NCBI GenBank assembly: GCA_964399295.1
Contig: CAYNQD010000001.1
Span: 399,672 to 463,671 of the forward strand
Direction of reading: 5' to 3'
DNA from: an uncultured Candidatus Saccharibacteria bacterium
GTDB lineage: Bacteria > Patescibacteriota > Minisyncoccia > Phycocordibacterales > UBA918
Length of the DNA stretch: 64,000 bases
This document shows positions 31,067 to 52,406 of the stretch, piece after piece. Position 1 is the first letter of the stretch. Each line of letters starts with the position of its first letter. Position numbers and translations under genes: made by a program. Below the pieces are notes generated by a model, which was not told where the DNA came from, did no database searches, and saw nothing but the letters and a program-made list of their open reading frames with translations.

Positions 31067-31220
31067 GTAGAATGCTTACGCTTTCTTTGGCTCAGTTTGG
31101 GGGGTATCTTTGGTTGGGGTAGCTGGATTCGTTTCAACTTTTTTCTCGTCTGACATAATTGTTTTTACGTTAGCTACTAAACCGCGGCTAGGTCATTATA
31201 CACCACACTAGGATAAATAG

Positions 31221-31592: not shown

Positions 31593-31625
31593 ATTAGTAA
31601 TTATAATAAATATCCCTTACACTCC

Positions 31626-32267: not shown

Positions 32268-32337
32268 TACCTCCTATTTTAGCTTAAATACCGATTTTCA
32301 GATAGTGAAGTTATTTCAAAACAACGCATCTCGAGCA

Positions 32338-32814
32338 CTATTCTACTTTAGCTTCAAAAAAAGAAGGAGGGTATTTCAAATCATATGTTAGAGTGAAGTT
32401 GCCCGGAGGATTGGTAAAGCACATTCTCTTTTGCCTATCACCTTCCCTTAGTCCCGAAAAGGAAGATCGTGCATGATAAACTACGCTGTCTGTACTAATA
32501 GAGACGCATATTCTTGTGGGCAAAATCCCCTCAGTAGAGTTGACCATAAGAGTGACTTTATTTTTTTCTATATTTTTACTACTTATATTAAAAATTGCCT
32601 GCTCGTTTATTTTCACGTCACCCTGTATTTGTATTACATCACCATTATTATTTTCTGCGTTTTGCGATGCGTAGTTAATAACTTCTTGAGAAGAAGTATC
32701 ATAGATGTCACCACTATAATTTTTTCCTATCCCAAATACGTAATAAAGAACGAGGCCTCCGATTACTGTAACGCCTATCCCCACTATCCAACGATTTTTC
32801 AGAATTTTATTCAT
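32338..32814 (-). CDS. Membrane-anchored hypothetical protein
   Basis: 158 aa; N-terminal TM (IVGIGVTVIGGLVLYYVFGI). Confidence 0.5.
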   Translation of the reverse strand: MNKILKNRWIVGIGVTVIGGLVLYYVFGIGKNYSGDIYDTSSQEVINYASQNAENNNGDVIQIQGDVKINEQAIFNISSKNIEKNKVTLMVNSTEGILPTRICVSISTDSVVYHARSSFSGLREGDRQKRMCFTNPPGNFTLTYDLKYPPSFFEAKVE

Positions 32815-32843
32815 AAAGTAATACTTCTCGTGCTAGCACAACT

Positions 32844-32906
32844 TGGCTGCCGGACAGGGATTCGAACCGTCTCGGTCTAGAACCAAGATATGGCTTAAAA
32901 TATAAA
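32844..32906 (-). repeat. tRNA-3'-end-derived repeat copy A (T-arm-like GGTTCGAATCC + CGGCAGC acceptor-like end)
   Basis: Minus-strand reads ...TTTAAGCCATATCTTGGTTCTAGACCGAGACGGTTCGAATCCCTGTCCGGCAGCCA; abuts stop codon of 32915..35653 gene; homologous to copies at 48567, 53941, 54881. Confidence 0.7.
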
Positions 32907-32914
32907 CTTTTCTT

Positions 32915-35653
32915 TTACCACCACAATCCAGACAGTCCTGCAGCTTTCATTTGTGCGCGAGTGATAGGTCCGAAGTATCCGACAGCTGGCGAGATACCGT
33001 TTGCAGCTTGATATGCTGCGAGAGCTGATCGTGTTTGGTTAAGGAACAGGCCGGTTGCTCCAGCTGGAATTGAGTGTCCCTGTCCAATGAGAAGAGTCTG
33101 GAGAGCTACAACATCAGCACCTTCCATTCCATATTTAAGGTCTCGGACAAAAAATGCTGGTGCGGTAATTCCGAGCAGGTCTAGAATATTCTGTGGAAGA
33201 GATATACCCATACTGTGTGCTCGAAGAAGCATGTCACGATGTTGATTAACAAGGTTTTCTACTGTTTGAGTTGGTCGTTGACCTACAATGTGAGAGCTCG
33301 ATCGTCGTGTTCGTTGTGAAGGAGACACGATTTCTTCTTCAGTCGGCAAAGTGGGTTCTACTTGCGTAATGACAAAAAGCTCAGAGAAGACGACGAGCCC
33401 CAAACGAGATAGATTGTATGAACCAGAAATTCCTCCTACCAACTGGCCAAACATAGACTCCATACCTTCATCAAAATACTCATCTTCACTTTCTGACTGC
33501 CTAGTCCACGAGGTACCATTATCGAGCGAAGAATACACCACTATCCGATACCAGAGTAATTCATCGTCATATGCATCCATGCGGTTTTCTACCACAGCCG
33601 CGACTACCCCCTCACCTGTCGCTGAAGGAGCGACATATATCCACGAGTGATCTCCTGGGGCAGTACTCGTGGCCCACGATAATCCCTTATCGCTGGATAT
33701 GTACATGTTTCTGGCGAAGGCATCGATGACAAAAAATCTCTCCGCGTCTTTCGAGACCATCACTGAGAAAGGAATAACTTCTTGGTCAAGATATGAAAGT
33801 ATCGGCTCCCACGTTTCTCCATAATCATGAGAAACAATCACTACTGCCATTTCAGGATCTCCCATCATGAGCATAGGGCTCATTGCAAGCATAATTGTTG
33901 AACCATTTGCTGAGGCAGAAATTGAAGAAGGAAAAACGAACGATTCATTGGAAAGGCTGAGAGGGAGCATGTCTTCCCAATCCTCTCCTCCATTGTTCGA
34001 ATATATCACTTTGTTAAATAATGCAACATATATATGTGACAAATCACTTGATGCGGTGATACGTGAAAGATACAATGCCATAAAAGTAAGGTAGTCATCG
34101 CCAAACTCTTCCATATCATCCATTGCAATAGTTGATATTACTTGGATGTCCCAACTCTCTCCGCCGTCTACAGAACTGACAGCAATAAAATTAACTTCAT
34201 CGCCTATAAGGCTAGTGACGCCTACTGCCATTATCTTCATCCCATCTGCAGAAGACGTGACAGATGTAAGGAGTATGTCTGGAGAAGAGGTGCTGAGTTC
34301 CCAGCTCTCTCCGCCGTTGGCTGACACATATATGACAGTAGAAGGATACTCTTCCTCGCCAAGTAGTCCATGTCCTGTTGCTACTAGTCGGCTCCCGTCT
34401 GAAGATACCGAGATTGATGTCCATATATGATTTTCAAAACCTTCTAAGTGTTGCTCGAGCATTTCATATATAGAACCTTCTGGAATATCATTGTCGTCTC
34501 CAAAATCCTCTTCTATCGGCTCCTCAATGGTGGTGAAGCTCCATGAAGAACCGCTAATACCTGGGTAAGTATTGTCATCAGCATCAACAAACGCCGTATC
34601 AGGGATAACCACTAGATACTCAGTTCCATATTCAAATTCAGATATCGGACTGATTGTCACCTCATTACCGTCAATCGTAATACGATCGCTATCTATATCG
34701 AAGGACTCGAAAAGTGAATCATCTTCTGCTCGATAAATACTAATTTGTCCTGTCGATGTCGCAACGGTTGAGGTACTGAAGCTAAGAACGAGGTTGGTTG
34801 AAATAGCCACATCTTCTGCATTATCAACCGGAGAAAGTGTCGCTGAGATTGTTCCTAGTGATGCATTTGAATTTTCTGCCGCCTCCTCCTCGGTAATTGC
34901 CCGACTGTAGATCCGCACATCCTTCACATCACCCTTAAACCATCCCTGATTGTTGCTGCAGCTTGGGGCATCTATACCAGCAAATACATATACAGGATCA
35001 TCAGCTGCAGCATAGGCAGTCATCGCACTAGAAGCAACTTGCACACCATTCACATACAAGTCTAGTGTTTCTGTTTCGGGAGACCAAGTGTTGGCAATGC
35101 TATACCACTCTCCGAGCACCGCTGGCACAGAATTGACGGCTGTGACAGGAGTACCGTCCCATCCTATAGCGCGAAAATGTCCGTTCTGGATATGGAGCAT
35201 AGAAATACACCAACCCTGTCCATTTCCACCATTTGGACTGTTTGATATATGAATAATGTTCCCACTTTCACTTTCATCATTTACACGAACGGAAGCGGAT
35301 AGAGTATAGGCCTGATTGGACACGCCCATAGATTCCGTGAGAGGAGAATCGGTTCGGATGTAATCATCAACCCCATCAAAGGAAAGGCCTCCGTTTAAAA
35401 TCCAAGTTGGACCGCCATAGAGTGTACCCGGGTATCCGGTCAACGCTCCGGTTGTCCCCCCTTCTCCTTCATCAAGTGGCCAATAGAATTTCAAATCATC
35501 ACCAGCATGTGCACCAGAGACTGCGATAAAGAAAATTACCGCGAGACAAAAAGTTGTAGTAATAAAATATTTCCAGTTTTTCATTATGATTATTATTGTA
35601 TCATGACTAAATAAAATATGAACGTCATGTCCAAGTGCAAGAAATAATTGCAA
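32915..35653 (-). CDS. Large secreted surface protein: LamG/ConA-like lectin domain + BNR/Asp-box beta-propeller repeats + C-terminal peptidoglycan-binding domain
   Basis: 912 aa; N-terminal TM/signal; LamG-like YWPLDEG...FDGVDDY; six SxDxGxTW Asp-box repeats (SANGGESW, SVDGGESW, SNNGGEDW, SHDYGETW, SSDKGLSW, SLDNGTSW); C-terminal LKYGMEGADVVALQTLL...GYFGPITRAQM PG_binding_1. Confidence 0.75.
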   Translation of the reverse strand: MQLFLALGHDVHILFSHDTIIIIMKNWKYFITTTFCLAVIFFIAVSGAHAGDDLKFYWPLDEGEGGTTGALTGYPGTLYGGPTWILNGGLSFDGVDDYIRTDSPLTESMGVSNQAYTLSASVRVNDESESGNIIHISNSPNGGNGQGWCISMLHIQNGHFRAIGWDGTPVTAVNSVPAVLGEWYSIANTWSPETETLDLYVNGVQVASSAMTAYAAADDPVYVFAGIDAPSCSNNQGWFKGDVKDVRIYSRAITEEEAAENSNASLGTISATLSPVDNAEDVAISTNLVLSFSTSTVATSTGQISIYRAEDDSLFESFDIDSDRITIDGNEVTISPISEFEYGTEYLVVIPDTAFVDADDNTYPGISGSSWSFTTIEEPIEEDFGDDNDIPEGSIYEMLEQHLEGFENHIWTSISVSSDGSRLVATGHGLLGEEEYPSTVIYVSANGGESWELSTSSPDILLTSVTSSADGMKIMAVGVTSLIGDEVNFIAVSSVDGGESWDIQVISTIAMDDMEEFGDDYLTFMALYLSRITASSDLSHIYVALFNKVIYSNNGGEDWEDMLPLSLSNESFVFPSSISASANGSTIMLAMSPMLMMGDPEMAVVIVSHDYGETWEPILSYLDQEVIPFSVMVSKDAERFFVIDAFARNMYISSDKGLSWATSTAPGDHSWIYVAPSATGEGVVAAVVENRMDAYDDELLWYRIVVYSSLDNGTSWTRQSESEDEYFDEGMESMFGQLVGGISGSYNLSRLGLVVFSELFVITQVEPTLPTEEEIVSPSQRTRRSSSHIVGQRPTQTVENLVNQHRDMLLRAHSMGISLPQNILDLLGITAPAFFVRDLKYGMEGADVVALQTLLIGQGHSIPAGATGLFLNQTRSALAAYQAANGISPAVGYFGPITRAQMKAAGLSGLWW

Positions 35654-37217: not shown

Positions 37218-38495
37218 ATGAATACACAACCACTCACATGGCGAACGGAACAGCGAAAGGTCAGCGACCTCGTACCGAACGCCAAGAACCCTCGCTCACT
37301 CTCTGCACAACAAAAAGCAGACCTTGAAGCGAGCATTACTAAGTTCAACATTGCCGAGATCATGGCTTTGAACACCGACAACACGGTGCTGGCGGGTCAC
37401 GCCAGACTTGTTGTGCTGAAGGCGCTCGGACGCTCTGATGAAATGATCGATGTTCGCATTCCTTCTCGGACATTAACAAAGGAAGAGTGCGAGGAGTACA
37501 TGCTCCGCTCGAACCGCAACACTGGCTCGTGGAATCATGAACTGCTTCGTGCTTTTGATACGTCTTTCCTTCTCTCGATCGGATTTGACGATGTCGACTT
37601 GTCGGACATCTGGGAGGACGTACTTGAAATTGAAGATGATGATTTCAAGGAAGAGGATGCGGTTGAAGAAGCCAAGGACACCGACATCAAGAACGGTGAT
37701 CGGTTTCAACTTGGAGATCACCTGCTTGCGTGTGGCGACAGCACGGACCAGACAGTCGTGAAGAATCTTGTTGGCGACAAGAAAATCGATATGGTCTATG
37801 TTGACATTCCATACAATATAAATTTGAGCTACAACAAGGGATTAGGTGGAAAATCCCACTATGGCGGTGATGTCGACGACAAGAAATCCGATACTGAATA
37901 TCGTGCATTTGTGAAGAAACTCATGGAGAACGCTCTCGCGGTCTCCGCAAAGGATTCGCACCATATCTGGTATTGCGATTCAAGCTATGTGGGCATGATG
38001 CAATCACTCTTTGCAGAAGTTGGCATCGCATACAAGCGCACCGCATTGTGGATCAAAAACGGCATCAACTGCACTCCGAAGATAGCATTTTCGAAGATGT
38101 ATGAGCCGGCCTTGTACGGAGTAACCGGACGACCATACCTTTCACCAAAGCACACGAAATTCGGCGAGGTGCTTAACAAGGAGGTTGGTATCGGTAACGC
38201 AACGATTGATGACATCACAGACATGATTGATATCTGGCTCGCAAAGCGTGATGCGGGTCAGGATTATAAACATCCAACGCAGAAGCCACTCTCGCTTCAC
38301 GAGCGACCGCTCAATCGTTGTACCAAAATCGGAGATGCGGTCTTGGATCTTTGTGGTGGTAGCGGATCTACACTCCTAGCCTGCGAACAAATGAAGCGCA
38401 AAGCGTTTTTGGTCGAACGCAGTCCAGTATTTTGTCAGGTAATCATCAACCGCTATGAAGACTCCAGTGGAAACAAAGCAGTCAAGCTCAATTAA
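37218..38495 (+). CDS. ParB-like nuclease domain fused to beta-class N6-adenine/N4-cytosine DNA methyltransferase
   Basis: 425 aa; N-terminal ParBc-like (VSDLVPNAKNPR...), then LGDHLLACGDSTD, DIPY (motif IV), HPTQKP, DLCGGSGST (motif I) in beta-class order. Confidence 0.85.
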   Translation: MNTQPLTWRTEQRKVSDLVPNAKNPRSLSAQQKADLEASITKFNIAEIMALNTDNTVLAGHARLVVLKALGRSDEMIDVRIPSRTLTKEECEEYMLRSNRNTGSWNHELLRAFDTSFLLSIGFDDVDLSDIWEDVLEIEDDDFKEEDAVEEAKDTDIKNGDRFQLGDHLLACGDSTDQTVVKNLVGDKKIDMVYVDIPYNINLSYNKGLGGKSHYGGDVDDKKSDTEYRAFVKKLMENALAVSAKDSHHIWYCDSSYVGMMQSLFAEVGIAYKRTALWIKNGINCTPKIAFSKMYEPALYGVTGRPYLSPKHTKFGEVLNKEVGIGNATIDDITDMIDIWLAKRDAGQDYKHPTQKPLSLHERPLNRCTKIGDAVLDLCGGSGSTLLACEQMKRKAFLVERSPVFCQVIINRYEDSSGNKAVKLN

Positions 38496-39252
38496 GCACG
38501 GAGATGTGGTTCGGCTTGGCGACCACATTCTCTATTGTGGCAACGCTCAGGATGTTGACCTTGCAACGCTCCTTGAGGGCAGAACTATTTCCTGTCTTGC
38601 GTGTGACCCTCCGTATTCAGTAGATTATGCGGCCAGCAAGCGTAGTATCGGCAAGATTGCAAAAGATAAAGATATCGCAAATGACGGATTCATGACAGCT
38701 GAGGAGTATGTATCGTTCACGAAGTCGTGGATCTCGCCCGCATTGCCACATCTCTCAAAGAAGAACAGCATCTACGTCTTCAACTCGGACAAGATGATCT
38801 TCGCACTTCGACAGGCATTTGTGGAATTGGATCTGAAGGTCGCTCAGCTCATTATCTGGGTGAAGTCTCAGCCAATTCTCGGACGGCTCGACTATCTCCC
38901 ACAACACGAGTTGATCCTCTACGGCTGGAAAGGTACCCACGAGTGGCGACGTGGGAAGGATAAGTCAGTGATGTTTGCGCCGAAGCCATCGCGAAGTGCA
39001 CTCCATCCAACAATGAAGCCTGTCTCGCTCATGCGTCGAATTATCCTTAACGCCACTCGAGTTGGAAGTGTTGTCTATGACCCCTTTGGTGGGAGCGGTA
39101 CCACGCTAATTGCCTGCGAACACACCAAGCGTCGATGCATCATGGTCGAGATGGATCTAGAACACTGCGAGACAATCGTAAAGCGGTGGGAAAAACTAAC
39201 TGGTCATGGCACGGAAATCATCAGATCCGAAGGAGCGGAGCAAGCGGTTTAA
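38455..39252 (+). CDS. Beta-class N6-adenine/N4-cytosine DNA methyltransferase
   Basis: 265 aa; LGDHILYCGN, DPPY, HPTMKP, DPFGGSGTT; overlaps upstream gene by 41 nt. Confidence 0.85.
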   Translation: MKTPVETKQSSSIKHGDVVRLGDHILYCGNAQDVDLATLLEGRTISCLACDPPYSVDYAASKRSIGKIAKDKDIANDGFMTAEEYVSFTKSWISPALPHLSKKNSIYVFNSDKMIFALRQAFVELDLKVAQLIIWVKSQPILGRLDYLPQHELILYGWKGTHEWRRGKDKSVMFAPKPSRSALHPTMKPVSLMRRIILNATRVGSVVYDPFGGSGTTLIACEHTKRRCIMVEMDLEHCETIVKRWEKLTGHGTEIIRSEGAEQAV

Positions 39253-39634
39253 AACAAAACTGCTTGAACACCTCAAGGACTCCGGCAACGTCAGCTACGC
39301 CTGCAAGCGAGCAGGTATTTCTCGCGAAACCTACTACAAGTGGCGCAGGAGCAAAGTATTCGCTGAGGAAGCTGATGTGGCAATCGACCTTGGTAAAGAG
39401 TTTGTGAATGACTTGGCGCACACGCAACTCATTCAAAACATTCAGCAGGGACACATGGGTGCGGTGAAGTTTCAGCTGGCTAGCTGTCACATAGACTACC
39501 AAGCGAGAAAACCATGGCCTCGTGAACTACCAACTGCTCCGCCTCCAGTAACCGAGATTCATATCCATCCAGCCGAACCGATGGAAGTGCGAGAACAACA
39601 AGCGAAGAAGCGAGCGGAGGCTAAAGATCACTAG
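39206..39634 (+). CDS. HTH DNA-binding protein, phage terminase small-subunit-like
   Basis: 142 aa; SYACKRAGISRETYYKWRR helix-turn-helix typical of terminase small subunit/transposase-like HTH. Confidence 0.45.
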   Translation: MARKSSDPKERSKRFKTKLLEHLKDSGNVSYACKRAGISRETYYKWRRSKVFAEEADVAIDLGKEFVNDLAHTQLIQNIQQGHMGAVKFQLASCHIDYQARKPWPRELPTAPPPVTEIHIHPAEPMEVREQQAKKRAEAKDH

Positions 39635-40364
39635 CCAACACTTCAACAATATTCTTCCAGTCTGAGGTAGACATTCCAAAAGAAGTCGCGTGAGGGACCA
39701 CGGCATACAATGTGCCGTGGTTCTTTGCTATGTGGAGTTTCTTCGGAATGATTTCTTCAAACGGTATGCTTGCGATTTGTTGCCAATCTGAAAGATAAGT
39801 ACGTGAGTAGAAGAGGACGAGTTTTGGTTTATGCCTGTGTATCAATGCTTGGAGTTGGTGTGCTCGTCTTGGTTTGTATGTTTTTAGATACTCCTTGCGA
39901 GAAGCTAATCCCTCAATATTAAAATCACCATACAGCCAGTCTGCTTCTTTGATTGATTTAGACGGCAACGGCATGAGTTCCAAGACCGTGTGGTCGGATT
40001 TCTTTCTTCCGAATGAACCAATCTGAAACTGGCGAATTTCTTCGAGTGTTGGTTCTTTGCCTGTTGTTAGATATAGGTGAATGTATATGAGTGGTCGGTA
40101 TGTTTTCTGTGTCGGTGCATTGTCTGCAAACCAGCGTAAATGATCGGGGCTGGTCTGCATGTCTTCCACGATGTCGCAGACTATTTTGTCGCTGGTAGTT
40201 TTGAATCGCTCATAGAGTAGATTCATTGAACCATCAAAACCCTCTTCCATACCGACAAACCAAATATCACTTTCTAGATTGCCATAGCCAAAAAAGTTCT
40301 TGATTCGTTTTTGGATTAATATTTCAAAATCGTCTCCGTGAGGAGACTGGGTGTTGTCATTCAT
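39621..40364 (-). CDS. Hypothetical protein (possible paralog of 40675..41256; weak UDG-superfamily-like pattern)
   Basis: 247 aa; IWFVGMEEGFDG and C-terminal VVPHATSFG loosely resemble UDG motif A/B positions; low confidence. Confidence 0.4.
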   Translation of the reverse strand: MNDNTQSPHGDDFEILIQKRIKNFFGYGNLESDIWFVGMEEGFDGSMNLLYERFKTTSDKIVCDIVEDMQTSPDHLRWFADNAPTQKTYRPLIYIHLYLTTGKEPTLEEIRQFQIGSFGRKKSDHTVLELMPLPSKSIKEADWLYGDFNIEGLASRKEYLKTYKPRRAHQLQALIHRHKPKLVLFYSRTYLSDWQQIASIPFEEIIPKKLHIAKNHGTLYAVVPHATSFGMSTSDWKNIVEVLASDL

Positions 40365-40674
40365 TTTTCCCTACTAGGATTTAGTTGTGCGGAACCTTCA
40401 GGTAATCAAAAGGCTCCCAGCCATCGCGATCCAACCTTTCGGCCAGACCCATACCTGTTTCCAGATATGACCTAGTAGAGTGACTCTGACTGGGAGTCCT
40501 TTGATCTCTACTAGGTTTTTGCGCCATACCTTAGGAAACCCTAAGGGTTAGGCGACTATATTCAATTGTCGTACGAGTACATAATACCAAAATCGGTATC
40601 ATTTGGCACTTTAGCTTACATTCGGAGCTTTGCGAAGTAGCTGTTACCAACACATTCACGTATACTCTATAACC

Positions 40675-41256
40675 ATGTATTCCCGAGAAAAGTATGAGAA
40701 TTTGAAGGCAAAATATGGGGAATACGCCAGTTGGGCTATTTGGAATGAAAAAGACGAGCGTGATACTTCTGTTATAGATGCATCTTTTGAACAGCTATCT
40801 CCACATTATGTATTCATTGGTCTGAACATATCAGCTCCACTACGAGACTCTTCTTGGGCGAATTTTCGTGGTGGCAGACATGATCGAAAACTTAAGTACG
40901 CTTGCAACAATACTGCATTGCGTGGCTCATACCTTACTGATCTCTTTAAAGGAATACCTGAAGCAAAGTCATTCAAGGTAAAGGGGATGCTTACCAATGA
41001 CATCATTCAGGAAAATGTATCCTTCTTTCAAAACGAAATGGATGATATCGGATTGGACAAGGAATCTGTTCTTATCCTTCTCGGCGATTTAGCAACGCGA
41101 TATTTTGATGAACATTTTCGAAAACTCTTTACTAATTCGACCATAAGTTACCGCCACTACTCATCGTATGGAACCGATCGTGATTGGGTTGAGGGTTTAT
41201 GGAATCAACTTGATGTTGATGGCGATTTTGATTCTATCAAACTGAAAAGTAGTTAG
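40675..41256 (+). CDS. Hypothetical protein (divergent partner/paralog of 39621..40364)
   Basis: ORF track start 40630; Met at 40675 (MYSREKYENLKAK) plausible; YVFIGLNISAP...YLTDLFKG...H.SSYG pattern parallels upstream-divergent gene. Confidence 0.4.
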   Translation: MYSREKYENLKAKYGEYASWAIWNEKDERDTSVIDASFEQLSPHYVFIGLNISAPLRDSSWANFRGGRHDRKLKYACNNTALRGSYLTDLFKGIPEAKSFKVKGMLTNDIIQENVSFFQNEMDDIGLDKESVLILLGDLATRYFDEHFRKLFTNSTISYRHYSSYGTDRDWVEGLWNQLDVDGDFDSIKLKSS

Positions 41257-41275: not shown

Positions 41276-42685
41276 TCAATCTATCTTGTAGTAGGAATAC
41301 ATGTCTTTTAATTCCAGTCCTAAGCCAACCACATCCAGTCTATCCTTCCTATCATCAAAGAGAGCGTTGATTAAGTGTTTTCTCTCTCGATCAACAGCCA
41401 GATGTATTTGCCGGTGACAACGTGGACAGAGTGTCACATAGTTCGCAAGTACTTCGATAGAGTGAGAGAAATCATTTCTAAATTCACGAGGAATCAAGTG
41501 ATGTAATTCTAGATAATTTTTCCCATTTGCCTTTGCTGTAAAATAAATTGGACTACAATTATTCATGGTTTCCAGAGCACAAGTATATCCACTTTGAATC
41601 CTGGCTTGCCGCTTACGCAGGTTGTAAACAGCTTTAATTTTTTGCTTACCCTCTTCACTAGTTTCGTCAATATAGTCTTCAGCAATATCATGATCCTCAA
41701 CTTCAATCGAGTGATCCTCTACTCCCACCACATCTGAGATTGCCATCTCAATTTCCTCAAGCTCAAGAATTTCGACAAAGATTGGATCAAACACATTCTT
41801 GTTTTCCTGTAGGTAGGTCAAGACTCGATTTCGATCTATAGGAGCAATGGAGGTATTGTAATTGCCAACAAAAACCTCCGGCAGGTTTGCCATGTTTGGG
41901 TCTTTGGACCGGATAAGGAAAAGGGTTAGGAGGAACACTTTTGTCTCATCAAGGAGCATGTTGTGATTGAAGTTGCCACTTGGTTGGTACTTCTTCGATA
42001 TGCAACACGCAAAGGTTTCCGTGCTGATATTACTCTCAATGTATTGAGCTAACTCCTCACGCTCTTCTTCAGTTGATCGCAGGTAACCTATAAGAAAATC
42101 TGAGTCGTCATAAAAAGAATGGATGTAGAAGAATGGACTTCGAAGTGCCGTGCTTAGTGATTCAGATGTAAGCAATTGTTTTGCTGAGTCAGTAAGCAAT
42201 TCTTCGGTCACTCCATCGGTGCTCAGTAAAAATCCAAGCAGATCTTCTTTAACCCGGTAGACAATATAGTTTTTTCGGTTTGTGTAATATCCATTCAACA
42301 AGAACAGGTAGTTGAGTAACCACTTTTCGGCACTCTCAAAATCATTTTCTATAAACTGACCATAGAGTTGCCCTTTTGTGGTCCTGCTATATAAGTCATT
42401 TACATCCTTTCGAAAGAGCTTCGATTGGATCATGTTTATGACGTGATGCTTGTGCTTCTCCTGCCCGTGTCCCTGTCGAGGCCACTGATCTCTTGGCATG
42501 TTTTCTACCTCAAGAAAAGTAGTGAACGCATCAATGAATGCTTTCTGTGTTCTGAAGTTCGTGTTGGTGTATTCAAACATTCTTCCGGCAGCACCCTTAC
42601 CCAAAGAAGCGTGGTTTTTAAACCACTCTTGATTAGCATTTTTCTCTTTGTATATATCTACTAAACTCATGTGTTTGTTTCGCAA
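41276..42685 (-). CDS. HNH endonuclease-domain protein (putative restriction endonuclease)
   Basis: 469 aa; C-terminal LELHHLIPREF...VTLCPRCHRQIH HNH/zinc-finger motif; large N-terminal domain; operonic with two D12 MTases. Confidence 0.7.
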   Translation of the reverse strand: MRNKHMSLVDIYKEKNANQEWFKNHASLGKGAAGRMFEYTNTNFRTQKAFIDAFTTFLEVENMPRDQWPRQGHGQEKHKHHVINMIQSKLFRKDVNDLYSRTTKGQLYGQFIENDFESAEKWLLNYLFLLNGYYTNRKNYIVYRVKEDLLGFLLSTDGVTEELLTDSAKQLLTSESLSTALRSPFFYIHSFYDDSDFLIGYLRSTEEEREELAQYIESNISTETFACCISKKYQPSGNFNHNMLLDETKVFLLTLFLIRSKDPNMANLPEVFVGNYNTSIAPIDRNRVLTYLQENKNVFDPIFVEILELEEIEMAISDVVGVEDHSIEVEDHDIAEDYIDETSEEGKQKIKAVYNLRKRQARIQSGYTCALETMNNCSPIYFTAKANGKNYLELHHLIPREFRNDFSHSIEVLANYVTLCPRCHRQIHLAVDRERKHLINALFDDRKDRLDVVGLGLELKDMYSYYKID

Positions 42686-43677
42686 ATGAACAGAAGTTCT
42701 TTGTGGTCTTTAAAGTCCGTCTTGCCACTGTTGAAGAATTTGTGGGCTACCTCTTTACGCGTGACCTTACCCCTAGAGGAAAGGGTATCTACCAACTGCT
42801 CCTCAGTGATCTTATTGTTTGACGCACTGCTCTTTGCAGAGTAGGTATTATTGTAAGATACAACGATTATTTTTGCCTGCAAGTTATCGATCAGATCTTT
42901 GAACACTTGGGGGGCCTTTGCTCGTGAGTATTCGCTCTTTAGTTCGTCTCTCTTAAATTTCATGGATGTCCCCTCGAATTCTGTTGGTTTATTCCAACGG
43001 ACCAAGTTCTCTAGTACGTGATAGAAGTTTACATACTGACGTGCATTGTACGGCGGATCGATATATGCGATATCACAAGTGATGCTACGTACGAGCTTAT
43101 TAGCATCTATGTTGTGCATCATTGCCGTCCCTGTGAATTCCTCTAATTTTGGGAGGCGTAAATCCACACCTTTTTCTTCTGGAGCTTTTGAGAGAAAGTG
43201 CTCGAAGTGTCCCACTGTATTGGCGATTTTATCTGCGGTATACATGAGTGCAGTAAGTAAAATATACCGCTCTCGCTCGGTAAGTCGGGTATTTGCTATT
43301 CGTTCTCGCAGATATCCGATTTTCTTGGCATCCGGCTGAGAGAAGTACTTACCTCCGTATATTTTTGAGAAGTAATTTGCCTCCAAGTCATTGCCGTCTA
43401 TTGCATTGAATTCTGCAACGATCCTCTTGAGCTTCTCTTTGCTGTATTTTCCAGTACCAAACCACGCCTGGTATGCAATGTAATTCGATCGAAGGGTGTC
43501 GTTTACAATCACATCCATTCCTTTCTCCAGCATATAGTTTGCGACCACACCAGTACCAGCAAACAAGTCAGCGAATACCACCTTTCCGTTGCAGAAAGGT
43601 TCGATGCTGTCGTAAATGTTGTTCAAGAGAGAACTTTTACTTCCAGTATATCGTCTGTTGTTAATTAATAAGCTCAT
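42667..43677 (-). CDS. D12-class (Dam-family) N6-adenine DNA methyltransferase
   Basis: 336 aa; N-terminal RYTGSKSSL, DLFAGTG (motif I), DPPY (motif IV). Confidence 0.85.
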   Translation of the reverse strand: MSLLINNRRYTGSKSSLLNNIYDSIEPFCNGKVVFADLFAGTGVVANYMLEKGMDVIVNDTLRSNYIAYQAWFGTGKYSKEKLKRIVAEFNAIDGNDLEANYFSKIYGGKYFSQPDAKKIGYLRERIANTRLTERERYILLTALMYTADKIANTVGHFEHFLSKAPEEKGVDLRLPKLEEFTGTAMMHNIDANKLVRSITCDIAYIDPPYNARQYVNFYHVLENLVRWNKPTEFEGTSMKFKRDELKSEYSRAKAPQVFKDLIDNLQAKIIVVSYNNTYSAKSSASNNKITEEQLVDTLSSRGKVTRKEVAHKFFNSGKTDFKDHKELLFICETNT

Positions 43678-44602
43678 AATTCGTAATCAAAATTTCGCGC
43701 TCAGCCGCTTGTCGGTTGATCTTATTATAGCTAGCACTGCGGTAGTGGTAATTGATGTCCCAAATCTGCCAGTCATTTCGGTTAAAGGTGCGCACCCATT
43801 CCGATAATGGATTGTTGGTTGCGCCCACTTTAGTGAGTACGTTGGAAAGTGCAAACTTCTTCCCTTTCCTATCAAGAGCTTTTAATAGATCGATCAGTTC
43901 GTGTTCGGTTTCTTCTGTCCAATTTCCTGCCTCGTTGTAGACAGCATCCCCTACCAAGTATGGAGGATCAGCATATATAAAATCTGCCTTAAAGAGAATG
44001 TCTTGAATCTTTTTATCTCGGAAGTCGCCGCATATAAATTTGTAATTGATCTTTTGTACTCGATCTATGTACTGGGTTAGCTTTCGGATGTTGCTGTTAT
44101 TCAGATCGGTTTTCCCGACTGGCAAATTGAAGTCTCCGTCCCGATTAAATCGCATGTCATTGTTAAATGCATACACTACCAGCAAGTAAAGGAGATCGAA
44201 TGCTTTCTTTGAGGATTTATTTTTAAGAGCATTATAATCATCACGTAGTTTGTAGTACCCCTCTGAGTTGTATGCCTTGAGTCCGTTGTTGTCTGCTTTG
44301 GGAATACCTTGGCGGTATGTTTGATATCCGTACTTTGCAGAGTATGACAGTCCGTACTTTTCAACGAGTTTTTCTAGTCTCGGTAAAAGTTTTTCAATGG
44401 TTGAGACCGCTAAGTGTTGAAGCAGACCAATCACATTCTCGTTGTTGTCTATAAAAATAACTTTCTTTGCGTTTACACTTAGTCCTACTGTCGCGCCTCC
44501 GCAAAATAAATCTACAAATGTATCAACCTCTTTAGGAAATCGAGTTGCAAACTGTTCCATTAACCTTGACTTGTTTCCTGTGTAATTGAGTGGTGTTTTC
44601 AT
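43661..44602 (-). CDS. D12-class (Dam-family) N6-adenine DNA methyltransferase (second copy)
   Basis: 313 aa; NYTGNKSRL, DLFCGGA, ADPPY. Confidence 0.85.
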   Translation of the reverse strand: MKTPLNYTGNKSRLMEQFATRFPKEVDTFVDLFCGGATVGLSVNAKKVIFIDNNENVIGLLQHLAVSTIEKLLPRLEKLVEKYGLSYSAKYGYQTYRQGIPKADNNGLKAYNSEGYYKLRDDYNALKNKSSKKAFDLLYLLVVYAFNNDMRFNRDGDFNLPVGKTDLNNSNIRKLTQYIDRVQKINYKFICGDFRDKKIQDILFKADFIYADPPYLVGDAVYNEAGNWTEETEHELIDLLKALDRKGKKFALSNVLTKVGATNNPLSEWVRTFNRNDWQIWDINYHYRSASYNKINRQAAEREILITNYELIN

Positions 44603-44616: not shown

Positions 44617-44814
44617 CTACCTCGCCTTTCGTGAGGTGCCATTCTCATATCGTCGAAGGAAACTATCGATATCAGACCGCTTAATTCGCCATTGTCCGAT
44701 TTTGAACGCCCTAAGCCTCTTCGCTTTAATGTAGCGCATAATCGTTCGATCACTTACTCTCAAAGTTCTCGCTGCTTCCTTTACGGTCAGTACTTTTTCA
44801 GCCATCATAGGCAC
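44617..44814 (-). CDS. Excisionase-family helix-turn-helix DNA-binding protein
   Basis: 65 aa; LTVKEAARTLRVSDRTIMRYIKAKRL MerR-like excisionase HTH; divergent from serine recombinase. Confidence 0.65.
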   Translation of the reverse strand: MPMMAEKVLTVKEAARTLRVSDRTIMRYIKAKRLRAFKIGQWRIKRSDIDSFLRRYENGTSRKAR

Positions 44815-44947
44815 TTTATATTATAGCTTACGCTGTCATGTTTTGTCCTATTTATTTGACCTCTGTAGGTGGATAACTTGTCCGACAAACACTTACCAAC
44901 ACTCTCCAAAACGGCACCTAGACTCCTAGGAGCCGTTGCGTCATTAG

Positions 44948-46240
44948 TTGTGTTGTATGGAAAAAACACAACAAACGGAGGTTCTACGGTACTGCCTCTA
45001 TGCACGCAAAAGTACCGAAGCGGAGGATAAGCAGGCTCTATCCATTGAGTCCCAAGTAAAGGAAATGCAGTCCTTAGCGGAGCGAGAGCAACTTAATATC
45101 GTGGAAACCAAGAGAGAGTCCCACTCCTCTAAAGAAGTAGGTCAACGTCCGGTATACAACCAGATGCTCAATGAAATACGCGAAGGTAAGTACAATGCCA
45201 TCCTTACGTGGGCACCAGATAGATTAAGTCGTAATGCGGGAGACTTGGGATCGGTGGTAGACCTCATGGACCAGAAGCTTCTGCATGAGATACGCACCTA
45301 CGGACAGAAGTTCACGAACAACCCAAATGAGAAGTTCCTGCTGATGATCCTCGGGTCACAGGCAAAGTTGGAGAACGACAACAAGGCGGTCAATGTGAAG
45401 CGAGGACTACGAACACGCTGTGAAATGGGATGGAGACCAGGAGTAGCTCCTACCGGATACTTGAATGAGAAGCATGTCGATAAGAAATGTCAGGTTCGGA
45501 TTGATCCGAAACGAGCACCCGTCATAAAGCAGATGTTTGAGAAGGTAGCGTACGAACACTGGAGCGGACGGAAAGTGTACCGATGGCTACGAGAGATTGA
45601 TTTCAAGACCCATCGCGGAAAGCCACTGGTGCTAGCGAACATTTATATAATCCTGAGAAATTCGTACTACCACGGTGACTTCGAATACCCTGTCGGAAGC
45701 GGACAGTGGTATACCGGCAAACACACACCGATTATAGATAAGGATTTATTCGACAAGGTGCAGATGACGCTCAATGAGAACTACATACCCAAGACTGAGA
45801 GCAAGGAGTTCGCCTTTACCAAGCTCATACGATGCGGATATTGCGGCTCAGGGATATCGGCTGATGAAAAATTCAAGAAGCTGAAGAATGGCGGTGTGAA
45901 TCGCCATGTCTACTACTTCTGCTCTAAGTCACGGAATATCGACTGCAAGAATCCTTATATCAACGAACCGAGTCTGATTGAAGAACTAATAGGTCTGATG
46001 GATACGGTAGACCTAGATGAGCTTGGAGTACGTGGCAGGATAGAAGATGAGATCAGACGGTTCAATAAATTCAGGTCGGGAGTACTGGGGCACAAACAAG
46101 ATAAGGTGGAGATAGATGTGGACGTACGAAACTATACAAAGTACCTACTGCGAGAAGGAACGCTACTAGAAAAGCGAGAACTGCTCGGATGCCTACAAAG
46201 CAAACTTTTCCTGAAAGATAAAAAGATTGGAATTGAGTAA
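44948..46240 (+). CDS. Large serine recombinase (resolvase catalytic domain + recombinase domain + zinc ribbon)
   Basis: 430 aa; catalytic YARKST near N-terminus; recombinase-domain and CGYCGS...C..C zinc-ribbon region. Confidence 0.85.
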   Translation: MCCMEKTQQTEVLRYCLYARKSTEAEDKQALSIESQVKEMQSLAEREQLNIVETKRESHSSKEVGQRPVYNQMLNEIREGKYNAILTWAPDRLSRNAGDLGSVVDLMDQKLLHEIRTYGQKFTNNPNEKFLLMILGSQAKLENDNKAVNVKRGLRTRCEMGWRPGVAPTGYLNEKHVDKKCQVRIDPKRAPVIKQMFEKVAYEHWSGRKVYRWLREIDFKTHRGKPLVLANIYIILRNSYYHGDFEYPVGSGQWYTGKHTPIIDKDLFDKVQMTLNENYIPKTESKEFAFTKLIRCGYCGSGISADEKFKKLKNGGVNRHVYYFCSKSRNIDCKNPYINEPSLIEELIGLMDTVDLDELGVRGRIEDEIRRFNKFRSGVLGHKQDKVEIDVDVRNYTKYLLREGTLLEKRELLGCLQSKLFLKDKKIGIE

Positions 46241-48635: not shown

Positions 48636-51600
48636 TTACCACCACAACCCAGAAAGCCCTGCCTCTTTCATCTGTGCACGAGTAATTGGCCCGAAGTAGC
48701 CACCCCGTGGCGCGATACCGTTCGCAACCTGATACGCATCAAGTGCATACTGAGTTTGAGTACCAAAGTAACCTGTTGCCCCAGCCGGTATAGAGTACCC
48801 TTGTCCAATAAGAAGCGTCTGGAGTCGACGAACATCTTCCCCGTCCATACCATATTCAAGATCACGAACAGATAGTGATCCATTCTCAACACCAAGCATG
48901 ATAAGAATATTTTGTGGTAATACAATACCAGCTTCATGTGCCCGGATAAGTAAATCTCGATGCTGATCAACTATTTTTTGCAGGGCTTGTTCAGGGCTAT
49001 CGTACTTACATAACTCCTGTTTGTGTGCTGAAAAATACTCATAGTTAGAAGCGTTAGTATCTTTGCAGCCAAAGTGTGTACCACCAGTTGTCCGACTACC
49101 TGTAGGTTCTTCTGTTTCAGGACTAGTGCCAAACAATCCAAAAATAGAGAATGATGGAGTCGTACAAGAAATAGAGTTTGCATCAGTATCTAGTACACAG
49201 TCATTGAGTGCTATCCATTGCCCTCCGGTGTAGTGATAGAGCCAGAGTGTTGATTCATCGATACCCGAGACTTCATCTTCAGTGTATTCGTAATCAATTG
49301 TTACTTCAGTATCAAACGAATCGAAAATAGTATCACCATTTACAATTGCTTTTACATCAAATACCGTAGCGCCAATTTCATTTGGTGCCGAGCTTGGACG
49401 TCCAAGTGCGGTGAGTACTGCAGTGTTTGGTACTGCCTTTACCTGGATAACAATTGTTGAGTCAACAGGAGCATCTGCTGTTACTGAAAAAGTCTTTGCA
49501 TTTTCAGTCACATTGGTCGTGCCAGTGTTACCAGCATATATTGTGGTTGAAGTAGCTGTTGTTGGTGTAGCATTACCTGTACAACCAGTCGTGGTAAATG
49601 TACTGTCTGTTGACGTAGCAGTATTGGACGCACCATCAGTTGAAACAACGGCATAATGATACATAGTACAAGACAACAAACCAGAAAGATTTACTACATG
49701 CTCAGTCACGCGTGGTGATGTATTGATTTCAGCAGTAGTGGTTCCGTACAAATTAGTTAAACCATAAGATACCTTTGAAGAAGCATTCTCATCAGTAGTC
49801 CAAGAGATTGTAGCTCCTGAATCAGAAATTGATGATGCGACAACTTCACTAACTATAGGATCATCAGCATCTTCTTCCGGCTCCTCAGAACCGGTCCCAA
49901 GACTGAACATTTCTCCAGGAGTAAGGGCTCGATTATAAACTCGCACATCGTCAATATAGCCATCGAATGGTCCTGAACTTCCGCCATCTTGTACCCCAAT
50001 ACCAATAGAGAAATTATCTCCCGTACCGTAATTATCAGTAGGACTATCTGAAGATATGCCTACTTGGTCGCCATCAACATACAAGATCACATTTTCACCA
50101 TCACCAAGACAGGTAATATGGTGCCAAACATTGAAAAATGTTTCAGGATCATAAGTCCAATTCACCTCACCATGAGGTGTCCAGCACCTTAGTTGGTTGT
50201 CAGTGGTGAAAAAGAATTCAAATACATTATTTGCTCCAAACCAACCCTCGTTATCTGCAGCGGAACGTGGATATGCCCAACCAGCTAGAGTAAATTCAGG
50301 ATAATTGTTGAGAGAGAGTGAAGTGGTGATTCCGTCATTTACACCATCAAAATTCAAGCTATGAGAATCTGTAAACTCCACATCTGGAGGTGTAGTCGTG
50401 GAATATGAGGCACCGCTAATAGTTCCATTTTTACGATTAACAGTAGAATCAAGTGCCGTACTTCCTGATCCTTCGTCAAATCTCCAGTAAGCTACGAGAG
50501 AGTCATCCCAAGTCTGCCCAGTCGTTACAGCAACGGTTGCTTCAGCAGAACTTGGAGAAGGGTCTATATATCCGTCAGCTGGAACGGCATTTATACTATG
50601 ACTCAAAGTGGTACTAGCATTCACAGCCGAACCAACTGTTGCTTCAACAGTGACGGTAGCCACCTCCCCATCATCTAAACTAACTACAAATGAATCAATA
50701 TCAGATTCATCTCCAGAACCTGAATCAGCACCAGTCGAGGTGTAGCTCCAAATCACATCAGTGAATCCTGTATGTCCGATAACCATATCGTTGGTCACTG
50801 TTACCTCACCAGCATCATTTGGACCATTGTTAGTGACCGTATACGTATATTCTAAAGTGTCGCCATATCGATATGTACCATCTGGAGCATCAGTGACAGA
50901 AACGGCAATATCTGTCGGTAGAGACACTTGCAGATTGTCTATCGCATGAATGTTTGTTGATCCGCCTGTACCAGCTGTAAAGCCAAGTTTAAAGAAGTCT
51001 GGCGGCACGTCGTCATAAGCATAATCATCAATCACTGTGTGCCATGTTGCTCCATCGTCCCAACTCATCTCAACCCGAATTACCGCACCAGAGTCATTTG
51101 GTGATATAGATATTCGAGCCCTTCTCCACCCTCCATCAATTGTTTGACTGATTGGTGAATCCGATACTCTTGTGTGAGTTAAGTAGTTATATCCACTAGT
51201 TCCATTTCCAGACCCGCGTAAAGTGACGTTATCTGGAGCAGAACTTCCAATCCCAGTTTTTCCACCACCTGCTACAGGAAAACCTCCATACTCATCAAAT
51301 CCAACTCCAAGATATGCATGAGGTACTCCGGGAGTACTGCCACTAAGCGCATATCCAAGCGAAGAACCAAAGGCACCAGCTGCGATATTACCAACATTTA
51401 CCAAATCTCCATCCACCAAAAAGAATGCGAGACCATCTGCACCGGTTCCACCACCAGAGTAGTAGTCGAACTCAACAACAATACCGTTATCAGAAGAAAA
51501 AGCGGTGTCATAATATCCTAGTCCAGCTTGACTAGTAGCGGCAGTAGTGAGACGCAAGGTTTCTTCTGAATCTACCACAGCTCCCCAGGACGCACTACTA

Positions 51601-52406
51601 CCAAGAATCCATTTAACTGGTTTAGCTTCATCAAAATTTTCAGAAATAGGAAACACTCCAGAAAGCTCAGAAATTTCACCTGGAGTTAGGGCCCGTGAAT
51701 ATACTCGTACATCATCAATTTTGCCTTGGAAATACCGCTGCAAACTATTTTCATAGTTTGAGGCTCCGATAGGAAGAGATACATCGCCTAGATTAATATC
51801 CATATCGAGACCAGTGATAGTGTCTCGTGCAACTCCATCATAGTAGAGCGTGCCGTTACCCTGATCTATTACTATAGAAATGTTATGCCATTCGCTATCT
51901 GCATAACTCACTGTGTAATTTAGGTCTTTACGAGCACCATCAGCTCCACGAAATAAACCTTGAATTTCGCCTGAAACAAGATATATTTCGGCCAGAGGAG
52001 TACCCGGTTTACTGCTATCACGAGCTGAAAATATTCCTTTACCTGACTGATTTGTACCAGTCTTAAACCATAGCGACCACGTAAAAGAATCCCCGTCTGA
52101 ATACACAGGGCTGTACGTAGTTGCAACAACGTCGTCTGTACCATCAAAATCTAAACTGCGTGGATTAGTAAAACTTACATCAGGAACATCACTCGAAGGC
52201 TGTGGTTTGTCGTTTGCACCCGTAGCTCCACTTGGTGTTCCGTGACGATCACCTCCTGATGAATCAATAACCGAACTTACTCCATCACTCATGGTCTCAT
52301 CCAATTTCCAATATCCGACTAAATCATCCGACGCAGAGATTGTTGGAACTATATAAAATAATCCTACTGCCAGTACTGTTGATGTAATAAAAAAATATCG
52401 CTTCAT
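48636..52406 (-). CDS. Giant secreted surface protein: two LamG/ConA-like lectin domains, FN3/Ig-like modules, C-terminal peptidoglycan-binding domain
   Basis: 1256 aa; signal peptide; YWKLDETMSDG...FDGTDDV and YWRFDEGSGSTALDS...FDGVNDG LamG-like modules; C-terminal LEYGMDGEDVRRLQTLL...GYFGPITRAQMKEAGLSGLWW nearly identical to C-terminus of the 912-aa paralog. Confidence 0.75.
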   Translation of the reverse strand: MKRYFFITSTVLAVGLFYIVPTISASDDLVGYWKLDETMSDGVSSVIDSSGGDRHGTPSGATGANDKPQPSSDVPDVSFTNPRSLDFDGTDDVVATTYSPVYSDGDSFTWSLWFKTGTNQSGKGIFSARDSSKPGTPLAEIYLVSGEIQGLFRGADGARKDLNYTVSYADSEWHNISIVIDQGNGTLYYDGVARDTITGLDMDINLGDVSLPIGASNYENSLQRYFQGKIDDVRVYSRALTPGEISELSGVFPISENFDEAKPVKWILGSSASWGAVVDSEETLRLTTAATSQAGLGYYDTAFSSDNGIVVEFDYYSGGGTGADGLAFFLVDGDLVNVGNIAAGAFGSSLGYALSGSTPGVPHAYLGVGFDEYGGFPVAGGGKTGIGSSAPDNVTLRGSGNGTSGYNYLTHTRVSDSPISQTIDGGWRRARISISPNDSGAVIRVEMSWDDGATWHTVIDDYAYDDVPPDFFKLGFTAGTGGSTNIHAIDNLQVSLPTDIAVSVTDAPDGTYRYGDTLEYTYTVTNNGPNDAGEVTVTNDMVIGHTGFTDVIWSYTSTGADSGSGDESDIDSFVVSLDDGEVATVTVEATVGSAVNASTTLSHSINAVPADGYIDPSPSSAEATVAVTTGQTWDDSLVAYWRFDEGSGSTALDSTVNRKNGTISGASYSTTTPPDVEFTDSHSLNFDGVNDGITTSLSLNNYPEFTLAGWAYPRSAADNEGWFGANNVFEFFFTTDNQLRCWTPHGEVNWTYDPETFFNVWHHITCLGDGENVILYVDGDQVGISSDSPTDNYGTGDNFSIGIGVQDGGSSGPFDGYIDDVRVYNRALTPGEMFSLGTGSEEPEEDADDPIVSEVVASSISDSGATISWTTDENASSKVSYGLTNLYGTTTAEINTSPRVTEHVVNLSGLLSCTMYHYAVVSTDGASNTATSTDSTFTTTGCTGNATPTTATSTTIYAGNTGTTNVTENAKTFSVTADAPVDSTIVIQVKAVPNTAVLTALGRPSSAPNEIGATVFDVKAIVNGDTIFDSFDTEVTIDYEYTEDEVSGIDESTLWLYHYTGGQWIALNDCVLDTDANSISCTTPSFSIFGLFGTSPETEEPTGSRTTGGTHFGCKDTNASNYEYFSAHKQELCKYDSPEQALQKIVDQHRDLLIRAHEAGIVLPQNILIMLGVENGSLSVRDLEYGMDGEDVRRLQTLLIGQGYSIPAGATGYFGTQTQYALDAYQVANGIAPRGGYFGPITRAQMKEAGLSGLWW

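Follow-up and report, generated by a model that had tools for sequence, protein, structure and literature searches.

A candidate Type IIS-like restriction-modification operon with two adenine methylases and a bipartite HNH nuclease on a serine-recombinase island in a Patescibacteria genome

As a rule a Type IIS restriction enzyme comes with a pair of methylases, each for one strand, and in some systems, e.g., FokI and AlwI, the two are joined in a single protein (PMC4081073). Type IIS enzymes with an HNH nuclease are already known: MnlI, Eco31I, HphI, and HpyAV (PMC2816704). In LlaJI two methylases serve the asymmetric site GACGC/GCGTC and the system restricts unmethylated DNA; the unique N-terminal half of its R1 protein alone sets specificity and is fused to an McrB-like GTPase, and R2 is the nuclease (PMC1459862). 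LlaI and BsuMI possess a separate R1 reader with an alpha/beta and ERCC4-like fold (bioRxiv 10.64898/2026.08.31.748284). A census of McrBC systems saw methylase-associated McrB clades and deferred them to later work (PMC11090510). Here we analyse a stretch of 64,000 nucleotides from an uncultured Candidatus Saccharibacteria bacterium (contig CAYNQD010000001.1, positions 399,672 to 463,671), henceforth the window. On its minus strand it carries two genes for adenine methylases, M1 and M2, which are followed by a gene for an HNH nuclease, R. We consider it probable that they constitute a Type IIS-like restriction-modification (R-M) operon, (HTH)-M1-M2-R with HTH for a helix-turn-helix gene, which resides on a small serine-recombinase island of this Patescibacteria genome and works as proposed below.

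M1 (43661..44602, minus strand) codes for an alpha-class D12 N6-adenine DNA methyltransferase of 313 amino acids (aa) which is Dam/T4-Dam-like. M2 (42667..43677, minus) codes for an alpha-class D12 N6-adenine methyltransferase of 336 aa from a different subfamily, and R (41276..42670, minus) for a candidate restriction endonuclease of 464 aa. M1 and M2 overlap by 17 nt, and the start ATG of R (42670-42668) overlaps the stop codon of M2 as ATGA. The three genes are translationally coupled. An earlier inspection by a model that saw the letters and open reading frames (ORFs) alone, the sequence-only reading, had noticed two D12 methylases of these lengths with their motifs and the 17-nt overlap; all of this is present, and so is the motif HHLIPREF...CPRCHRQIH which it quoted from R. 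It had further described R as a 469-aa protein with a C-terminal HNH domain. The domain stands (PF01844), the length does not. R homologues begin with MSLL, which matches a start at the ATG at 42670, and on metagenome contigs of identical sequence the gene was independently called with a length of 464 aa. Because of the MSLL starts, the ATGA overlap, and these gene calls we take R to be 464 aa long and not the TTG-started ORF of 469 aa. Residue numbers of R follow the numbering of the 469-aa ORF.

Both methylases match PF02086 (E 4.6e-33 for M1 and 2.1e-28 for M2). M1 scores 141.6 bits on TIGR00571 (dam), for which the cut-off is 114.85, and aligns with T4 Dam (PDB 1yfj) at E 8e-33; for M2 a PDB sequence search gave no match. 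The motifs are NYTGNK, VDLFCGGATVG, and ADPPY in M1 and RYTGSK, ADLFAGTGVV, and IDPPY in M2. Motif I and DPPY show a conservation of 90% or more among 38 M1 and 40 M2 orthologues, and because of this neither methylase looks inactive. Inactivating substitutions in motif IV, one of the two objections which the sequence-only reading had raised against itself, were looked for, and DPPY is kept in both proteins and in these orthologues.

The likeness between M1 and M2 is confined to the catalytic motifs (best BLASTP E 0.036). Individually, M1 matches the PADLOC model PDLC03383 (MTase_II, 318 positions, E 9e-89) and M2 the stand-alone model PDLC03373 (339 positions, E 3e-110). In the fused PADLOC models PDLC03292 and PDLC03287, which have 722 and 646 positions, M2 corresponds to the N-half and M1 to the C-half. 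On the 722-position model M2 lies on positions 77-407 and M1 on 419-716; on the 646-position model they map to opposite halves as well. The same division prevails on plasmids of cultured Firmicutes. There, relatives of M2 (45-48% identical) are either the first gene of a pair or the N-terminal half of a single 'Dam family' methylase of 700 aa; with the second gene or the C-terminal half M1 shares 37% identity. In the fused 700-aa methylase of E. gallinarum pEG81-1, M2 is 45% identical to residues 70-396 in the N-half and M1 37% to the C-half; split pairs that match M1/M2 are found on L. lactis and Macrococcoides pMCCL2 plasmids. The gene after these plasmid methylases, fused or paired, bears the annotation 'AlwI family type II restriction endonuclease'. 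Methylases of the FokI, SfaNI, and AlwI type fit this description of a two-domain or split D12 enzyme. Because M1 and M2 are dissimilar and are homologous to the halves of AlwI-partner methylases, we favour an asymmetric site, of which, judged by homology, M1 and M2 probably each methylate one strand. The textbook logic of Type IIS systems, one methylase for each strand of an asymmetric site, fits the pair best.

The sequence-only reading had suggested a DpnII-like logic, i.e., both methylases act on the same palindrome such as GATC, one on double-stranded and the other on single-stranded DNA, and the HNH nuclease is Type IIP-like. In DpnII, MboI, and LlaDCHI one methylase is an alpha-class D12 enzyme (DpnM-like) and the other a beta-class enzyme of the DpnA type, which is active on single-stranded DNA; both act on the same GATC palindrome. 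In the window M2 is an alpha-class D12 enzyme of PF02086, not of PF01555, and aligns with the N-half of fused methylases whose partners are Type IIS enzymes. R has no DpnII-family match in Pfam or PADLOC, and it is laid out as recognition, linker, and cleavage regions like a Type IIS enzyme and not like a compact homodimeric Type IIP enzyme. On the other side, M1 is a bona fide member of the Dam subfamily by its TIGR00571 score and its match to T4 Dam, and it keeps two residues of the T4 Dam hairpin. Further, GATC is the most depleted 4-mer of the window (284 observed versus 482 expected, i.e., 0.59, z -11.6) and again the most under-represented one in the loci of close homologues (0.72 of expectation). 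Yet this is a generic signal because GGCC and other palindromes are depleted too; besides GATC the list for the window includes GGCC, GGTC/GACC, TGATCA, and GGACC/GGTCC. With two alpha-class methylases which share only motifs and map to the halves of AlwI-partner fused methylases, the DpnII-like proposal is not supported and we regard it as unlikely.

In the k-mer analysis of the window GGATG, GCATC, and GGATC are not depleted. As palindromes are depleted generally and these three sequences are not, the idea of reading the recognition site from k-mer depletion was dropped as uninformative. The depletion of GATC and of the other listed sequences suggests a lineage long exposed to several restriction specificities. 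At the positions of S112, M114, R116, P126, and R130 in the DNA-reading hairpin of T4 Dam, M1 has N, D, R, P, and T, i.e., two residues are retained and three changed. The pattern suggests a target which is related to that of T4 Dam, not identical with it. An asymmetric site that contains GATG/CATC or GATC is only a lead. Two enzymes with such sites were set aside as comparisons: the experimentally typed SfaNI-like methylases of Caldicellulosiruptor (GATGC/GCATC, PMC9799307) are beta-class and not comparable, and MhoVII (GATG/CATC, PMC12898733) is no relative, being a beta+alpha fusion whose nuclease is of another kind.

For R about 150 full-length homologues were found; they measure 455-490 aa, and none is informatively named. 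An AlphaFold2 model built with 43 homologues (pLDDT 91.5, pTM 0.90) shows three parts: a helical N-terminal domain (N-domain, residues 1 to about 310), a disordered acidic linker, and a C-terminal HNH domain. We propose that the N-domain is a sequence-recognition domain, i.e., a reader. On the minus strand the mostly helical reader is encoded at 41747..42670 (residues 6-313), the acidic and poorly conserved linker at 41657..41746 (residues 314-343), and the HNH domain at 41276..41656 (residues 344-469 plus stop codon). The pLDDT drops below 50 at residues 314-323 and stays low to about residue 330, and across 54 sequences the linker has no conservation. In one family member (P0121, locus L084) a frameshift inside the linker separates reader and HNH. 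According to the model R would be a modular, bipartite protein, a reader joined by a flexible linker to an McrA-like HNH; separate recognition and cleavage domains are typical of Type IIS enzymes, which cut at a fixed distance outside their site.

The HNH domain is of the beta-beta-alpha-Me type with a Cys4 zinc site. Residues 388-428 match PF01844 (E 9e-5, above the gathering score). The similarity to EcoKMcrA (6ghc) reaches E 8e-5 by sequence and 4e-7 by profile; in the structural superposition the Foldseek probability is 1.0 with 35% identity over about 69 residues. The domain also matches the PADLOC model mREase_IV (E 5e-7). C369, C377, C420, C423, E393, H395, H396, N415, H424, and H428 are invariant in 43 sequences, and R possesses the features of the HNH superfamily, the catalytic His, Asn, and His together with the Cys4 zinc site. 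When R is compared with plasmid proteins only residues from about 327 to 469 find matches, namely in HNH and DUF3578-HNH proteins. No similarity of R to any PADLOC REase_II model was detected.

The situation differs for the N-domain. It has no match in Pfam, NCBIfam, or PADLOC and none in the PDB, either by sequence profile or by Foldseek; the large uncharacterised N-terminal domain to which the sequence-only reading had drawn attention is thus borne out. No homology to the AlwI-family endonuclease was detected (hhalign probability 0.1), and by family and structure searches the N-domain is neither SRA nor DUF3578 nor any other established reader of modified bases. Within the family, Y12, T42, N43, R45, W68, Q75, K79, K104, G105, N139, Y215, N219, S230, and K232 are invariant. 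The model contains a helix followed by a beta-hairpin 'wing' at residues 79-101, and two relatives of the reader show sub-threshold matches to the winged-helix family HTH_45 over the region 79-110.

To chart the distribution of the cassette 185,579 species genomes were scanned for R and the flanks were scored with phmmer. The order M1-M2-R is present at 42 independent loci, which goes far beyond chance, and the order R-M1-M2 at one; at two loci the cassette is cut at the contig start. At nine loci R lacks methylases with at least 2.2 kb of upstream sequence present, and five are undeterminable with upstream sequence missing. R is therefore operonic with both methylases in 45 of the 54 loci in which the upstream region can be judged. 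Distant R members of 33-44% identity keep the order M1 (about 310 aa), M2 (about 338 aa), R in unrelated flanks. The hosts, nearly all of them metagenome-assembled genomes (MAGs), belong to Patescibacteria, Omnitrophota, Bacteroidales, Clostridia, Bacilli, Mycoplasmatales, and Leptotrichiaceae, and there is one MAG labelled Nanoarchaeota. Because the cassette recurs across many phyla in unrelated flanks M1-M2-R can be considered a functional unit. Methyltransferase and endonuclease genes which are adjacent, overlapping, and co-inherited at 45 loci across phyla are what one expects of a Type II system, and with the methylase motifs intact the candidacy put forward in the sequence-only reading, a two-methylase Type II R-M system with an HNH nuclease, is upheld.

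The second objection in that reading was that R might serve in homing, or in phage packaging as a terminase-associated HNH nuclease, with a function unrelated to the methylases. HNH proteins are common in phages, and the island carries an HTH_Tnp_1_2 protein as well as orphan methylases of phage/plasmid type. But a search of 50,697 phage genomes gave no match to R, the surroundings show no sign of an intein, an intron, or a terminase, the window is chromosomal with housekeeping genes, and the two-methylase synteny is conserved across phyla. This possibility is effectively refuted and we assign it next to no probability.

Several relatives of R deviate from this pattern. In two Clostridia MAGs (L025 4465-7398 and L057 4442-7398) the order is M1-M2-R-R. 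The tandem R paralogues are 35% identical (N-domains 31-33%) with the HNH residues intact in both, and the pair could be a heterodimeric or dual-specificity variant. A divergent subgroup of about 500-525 aa, 27-28% identical to R, comprises L046, L049, L050 (Pumilibacter intestinalis), L051, L053, and L055. Its members have no methylases nearby, carry HQ or HR in place of the HH doublet, and possess an extra Lys/Ala-rich tail at the C-terminus. In L050 the gene is located between genes for a class II aminoacyl-tRNA synthetase and for pantothenate kinase / homoserine dehydrogenase; the downstream ORFs of L046, L049, L051, and L053 resemble those of L050 in length, the property compared. The subgroup looks like a domesticated or repurposed relative. 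In a Parcubacteria MAG (L010 5959-7350) an N-terminally shortened R homologue of 62% identity adjoins histidyl-tRNA synthetase; methylases are absent from the 6 kb upstream, and this may be an orphaned nuclease gene in decay.

The reader family is small: with a profile restricted to the N-domain only 134 representatives were retrieved among 1.84 billion representative proteins. In 58 of them the reader is joined to HNH, 24 are the reader alone (290-341 aa), and in eight it is fused to an AAA_5 domain of the McrB type (463-930 aa). One further protein of 804 aa has an unclassified C-terminal region, and 43 are fragments. In all eight contexts examined of the forms without HNH the reader is preceded by the M1/M2 pair, and it stands beside an M1/M2-like pair in every context examined except the R-only loci. 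P0172 (L077-L079) is part of the series HTH_26, D12, D12, reader-AAA_5-McrB_lid, McrC; P0190 (L082) of D12, D12, reader-AAA_5, McrC; and P0181 (L080, L081) of HTH_3-D12, D12, reader-AAA_5, RE_LlaJI. With P0156 (L085), P0163 (L086), and P0175 (L090, L091) the series is D12, D12, free reader, and a GmrSD_N+GmrSD_C protein. The M1 orthologues in these alternative-effector loci are 50-66% and the M2 orthologues 56-62% identical to those of the window, and the reader is 22-39% identical.

The cassettes at L080/L081 (3838-10108) and L077 (4846-10806) are LlaJI-like with N6-methyladenine (m6A) D12 methylases in place of C5-methylcytosine (m5C) methylases. M1 of L080 begins with a fused HTH_3 domain. 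L077 and L082 possess a separate HTH_26 gene instead, positioned directly before M1 in L077 and about 2.4 kb upstream in L082 with a gene for an LRR protein in between. The GmrSD cassettes extend over 872-5845 in L085, 4054-9034 in L086, and 602-5560 in L090. A free reader of about 307 aa followed by a DUF262-DUF1524 protein is found in all three of the reader-only contexts with enough sequence, and a GmrSD-type nuclease inside a methylase-protected cassette is unusual.

Because the same methylase pair precedes the reader whatever the effector, the reader appears to read the site which M1 and M2 mark. One may go further and view the M1/M2 pair and the reader as a portable 'specificity cassette' which is plugged into at least four nuclease effectors: a fused McrA-like HNH, a fused McrB AAA+ with McrC, a fused McrB AAA+ with RE_LlaJI, and a free reader with GmrSD. 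For us this generalisation hangs evenly in the balance. If it is true, the reader is a new DNA-recognition fold, and nucleases of the GmrSD and McrA types also act as methylation-blocked restriction enzymes.

The main rival, for which there is some support, makes R a modification-dependent, McrA-like Type IV nuclease which merely travels with the methylases or polices another modification. The best matches of the HNH are EcoKMcrA and mREase_IV, the same HNH module is fused to DUF3578, the other partners of the reader, McrB/McrC and GmrSD, are classic Type IV machines, and a solitary subgroup without methylases exists. However, the reader gene follows M1-M2, often with overlap, irrespective of the effector, as expected if it reads their site, and a nuclease triggered by the resident methylation would kill its host. 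Moreover, methylase-linked machines of the McrB type (LlaJI, LlaI, BsuMI) restrict unmethylated specific sites (PMC1459862; bioRxiv 10.64898/2026.08.31.748284). In contrast to a solitary Type IV nuclease R is operonic with two methylases, which implies restriction of unmodified rather than modified DNA, and its N-domain is no known reader of modified bases. Because operonic methylation would be suicidal and methylase-linked McrB machines attack unmethylated sites, we consider a Type IV function of R quite improbable.

The Type IIS-like operation which we prefer can be outlined as follows. M1 would methylate an adenine on one strand of a short asymmetric site and M2 on the other strand, whereby host DNA is protected. 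The reader, about 310 aa, helical, and putatively winged-helix-containing, would bind the same site when it is unmethylated, and the HNH domain on its flexible linker of about 30 residues would cut the DNA nearby. With a single HNH site a double-strand break could be achieved by dimerisation as in FokI or by nicking the strands in turn. Gene structure and coupling, intact catalytic motifs, strict synteny across phyla, the homology of M1 and M2 to the halves of methylases of Type IIS enzymes, the modular model of R, and the re-use of the reader with the same methylase pair and other nucleases are shown by the analysis. We infer from them that the reader recognises the site of the methylases and is blocked by methylation, and likewise the asymmetry of the site and the place of the cut. 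Cleavage of unmethylated, methylation-blocked sites by R is suggested by gene context and by the analogy to LlaJI (PMC1459862), a system which is the direct precedent for the layout of methylase pair, reader, and effector.

Several points weigh against this mechanism. At nine loci an R homologue occurs without methylases. The HNH module, McrBC, and GmrSD are best known from modification-dependent enzymes. The putative winged helix of the reader is assigned from predicted secondary structure and sub-threshold matches, and Foldseek finds no structural neighbour of the N-domain which would confirm DNA binding. The asymmetry of the site is read from homology and architecture, and a GATC-based site is kept in play by the Dam threshold passed by M1, by R116/P126, and by the depletion of GATC.

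The cassette is situated inside an island of about 9 kb (about 37.2-46.2 kb) in a chromosomal setting. Genes of the window include those for seryl-tRNA synthetase, a clamp-loader subunit of DNA polymerase III, PBP, Dus, and large surface proteins; with these housekeeping genes a prophage context was rejected. The seryl-tRNA synthetase is 88% identical to a protein of a Candidatus Pacebacteria MAG and 82% to proteins of Paceibacterota MAGs, by which the host is placed with the uncultured Patescibacteria, as a Candidatus Paceibacterota member. The GC content is 0.488 at 38-40 kb and about 0.43 elsewhere. At its end the island has an HTH_17/excisionase-family gene (44617..44808, minus, 63 aa by gene call), which is oriented like M1 and ends 14 nt ahead of it, and a divergent gene for a large serine recombinase (44948..46240, plus) with Resolvase, Recombinase, and Zn_ribbon_recom domains. 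The recombinase marks the cassette as cargo of an integrated island. Large serine recombinases are also near the cassette in L001, L004, L031, L033, L043, and L056. Repeats at att sites flanking the island were sought, and none was convincing. Upstream of the HTH_17 gene a promoter-like site, AGGACA-18-TATAAT (44820..44849, minus), is a possible operon promoter; it has 10/12 consensus matches in the scan, and the number of such sites in the region is not above shuffled expectation. The HTH_17 protein (PF12728, E 2.6e-17; TIGR01764, E 3e-13) is either a controller-like regulator of the operon or a directionality factor of the neighbouring recombinase. As a conserved component of the cassette it was rejected since it is not conserved in other loci; upstream in other cassettes there are small HTH genes unrelated to it, or M1 itself carries a fused HTH. 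It is optional and outside the conserved core.

Other genes in and around the island are listed for completeness. At 37218-39252 (plus) two tandem overlapping genes code for DNA methylases of the beta-class N6_N4 family; the first has 425 aa, with an N-terminal extension of about 180 aa, and the second 265 aa; no adjacent nuclease gene was recognised. As this pair joins M1 and M2 the island carries four methylase genes. A small HTH_Tnp_1_2 protein is encoded at 39206-39634. Between the orphan methylases and the R-M cassette lie ORFs of 247 aa (39621-40364, minus) and 208 aa (40630-41256, plus), for which neither a Pfam, NCBIfam, or PADLOC match nor a homologue in related loci was found. On either side of the island region lie several ORFs of great length, from 912 to 2162 aa (21157-35653, minus, and 48636-52406, minus). 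The three scanned (912, 1094, and 1256 aa) all possess PG_binding_1 domains, two of them Laminin_G_3, two Ig-like domains, and one BNR; they look like surface proteins.

The sequence-only reading had called the combination of an HNH nuclease with two D12 methylases unusual. In this it went too far: two methylases with a bipartite nuclease are usual for Type IIS (PMC4081073) and HNH Type IIS enzymes are known (PMC2816704), i.e., the system is of a known kind. We did not find described the R nuclease family, the reader domain, or the shared core which serves HNH, McrBC, LlaJI-R2, and GmrSD; an earlier computational annotation as putative Type II is likely. R adds an uncharacterised restriction endonuclease family whose recognition domain is without a described relative and whose members come nearly all from uncultured lineages (Patescibacteria, gut Clostridia, Bacteroidales, Mycoplasmatales). 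Should it be Type IIS-like with a short asymmetric site, R is a possible reagent or a scaffold for tethered nucleases. One methylase pair and reader coupled to HNH, McrBC, LlaJI-R2, and GmrSD constitute a natural experiment in modularity, and this shared core blurs the boundary between Type II and Type IV restriction. The reader family offers a route to learning how one reader hands DNA to very different nucleases. For bacteria of the candidate phyla radiation with their tiny genomes the island is an example of a mobile defence island with four methylase genes.

How, then, does the system relate to its described counterparts? The nuclease of DpnII, MboI, and LlaDCHI belongs to the DpnII family. 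The operon in the window shares with these systems two adenine methylases and one nuclease, and M1 is Dam-like; unlike them both methylases are alpha-class and the nuclease is HNH. EcoKMcrA and McrA-like Type IV enzymes possess a C-terminal HNH/zinc module homologous to that of R, yet the N-terminal domain of R is different, and R is operonic with methylases in 45 of the 54 judged loci.

LlaJI shares two methylases and a unique N-terminal reader with the window system, and relatives of the window reader are likewise fused to McrB-type AAA+ domains. In LlaJI and McrBC-like R-M systems the specificity subunit bears a GTPase/AAA+ domain of the McrB type and acts together with a separate PD-(D/E)XK subunit. 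In the window R lacks an AAA_5 domain, and neither McrC nor RE_LlaJI is encoded in the vicinity; the system is without an NTPase, its reader being joined straight to the HNH, and the methylases are m6A D12 enzymes, not m5C. We take the N-domain of LlaJI.R1 to be B3-like, unlike the mostly helical reader of the window. LlaI.R1 was rejected as a relative of the reader since its published fold is alpha/beta and ERCC4-like.

Closest on the side of the methylases are the two-domain or split D12 methylases that partner AlwI-family enzymes. M2 is 45-48% identical to their N-half or first gene and M1 37% to their C-half or second gene. In the window the order is reversed, M1 then M2, with the genes unfused, and R is unrelated to the AlwI-family endonuclease (hhalign probability 0.1). 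The assignment of one domain to each strand in AlwI-partner methylases (PMC4081073) is the logic proposed for M1 and M2, too.

The HNH Type IIS enzymes MnlI, Eco31I/BsaI, HphI, and HpyAV/Hin4II resemble R in design. The HNH of R differs in being of the McrA/Cys4 type, and its N-domain belongs to an undescribed family. Named HNH Type IIS systems mostly mix m6A with m5C or N4-methylcytosine methylation, whereas both methylases of the window are alpha-class D12 m6A enzymes. HNH Type IIS enzymes act on an asymmetric site and are served by two methylase activities (PMC2816704, PMC4081073); the window has two methylases, and its site is probably asymmetric. Like R, these enzymes combine an N-terminal recognition region with a C-terminal HNH, and each chain carries a single HNH active site.

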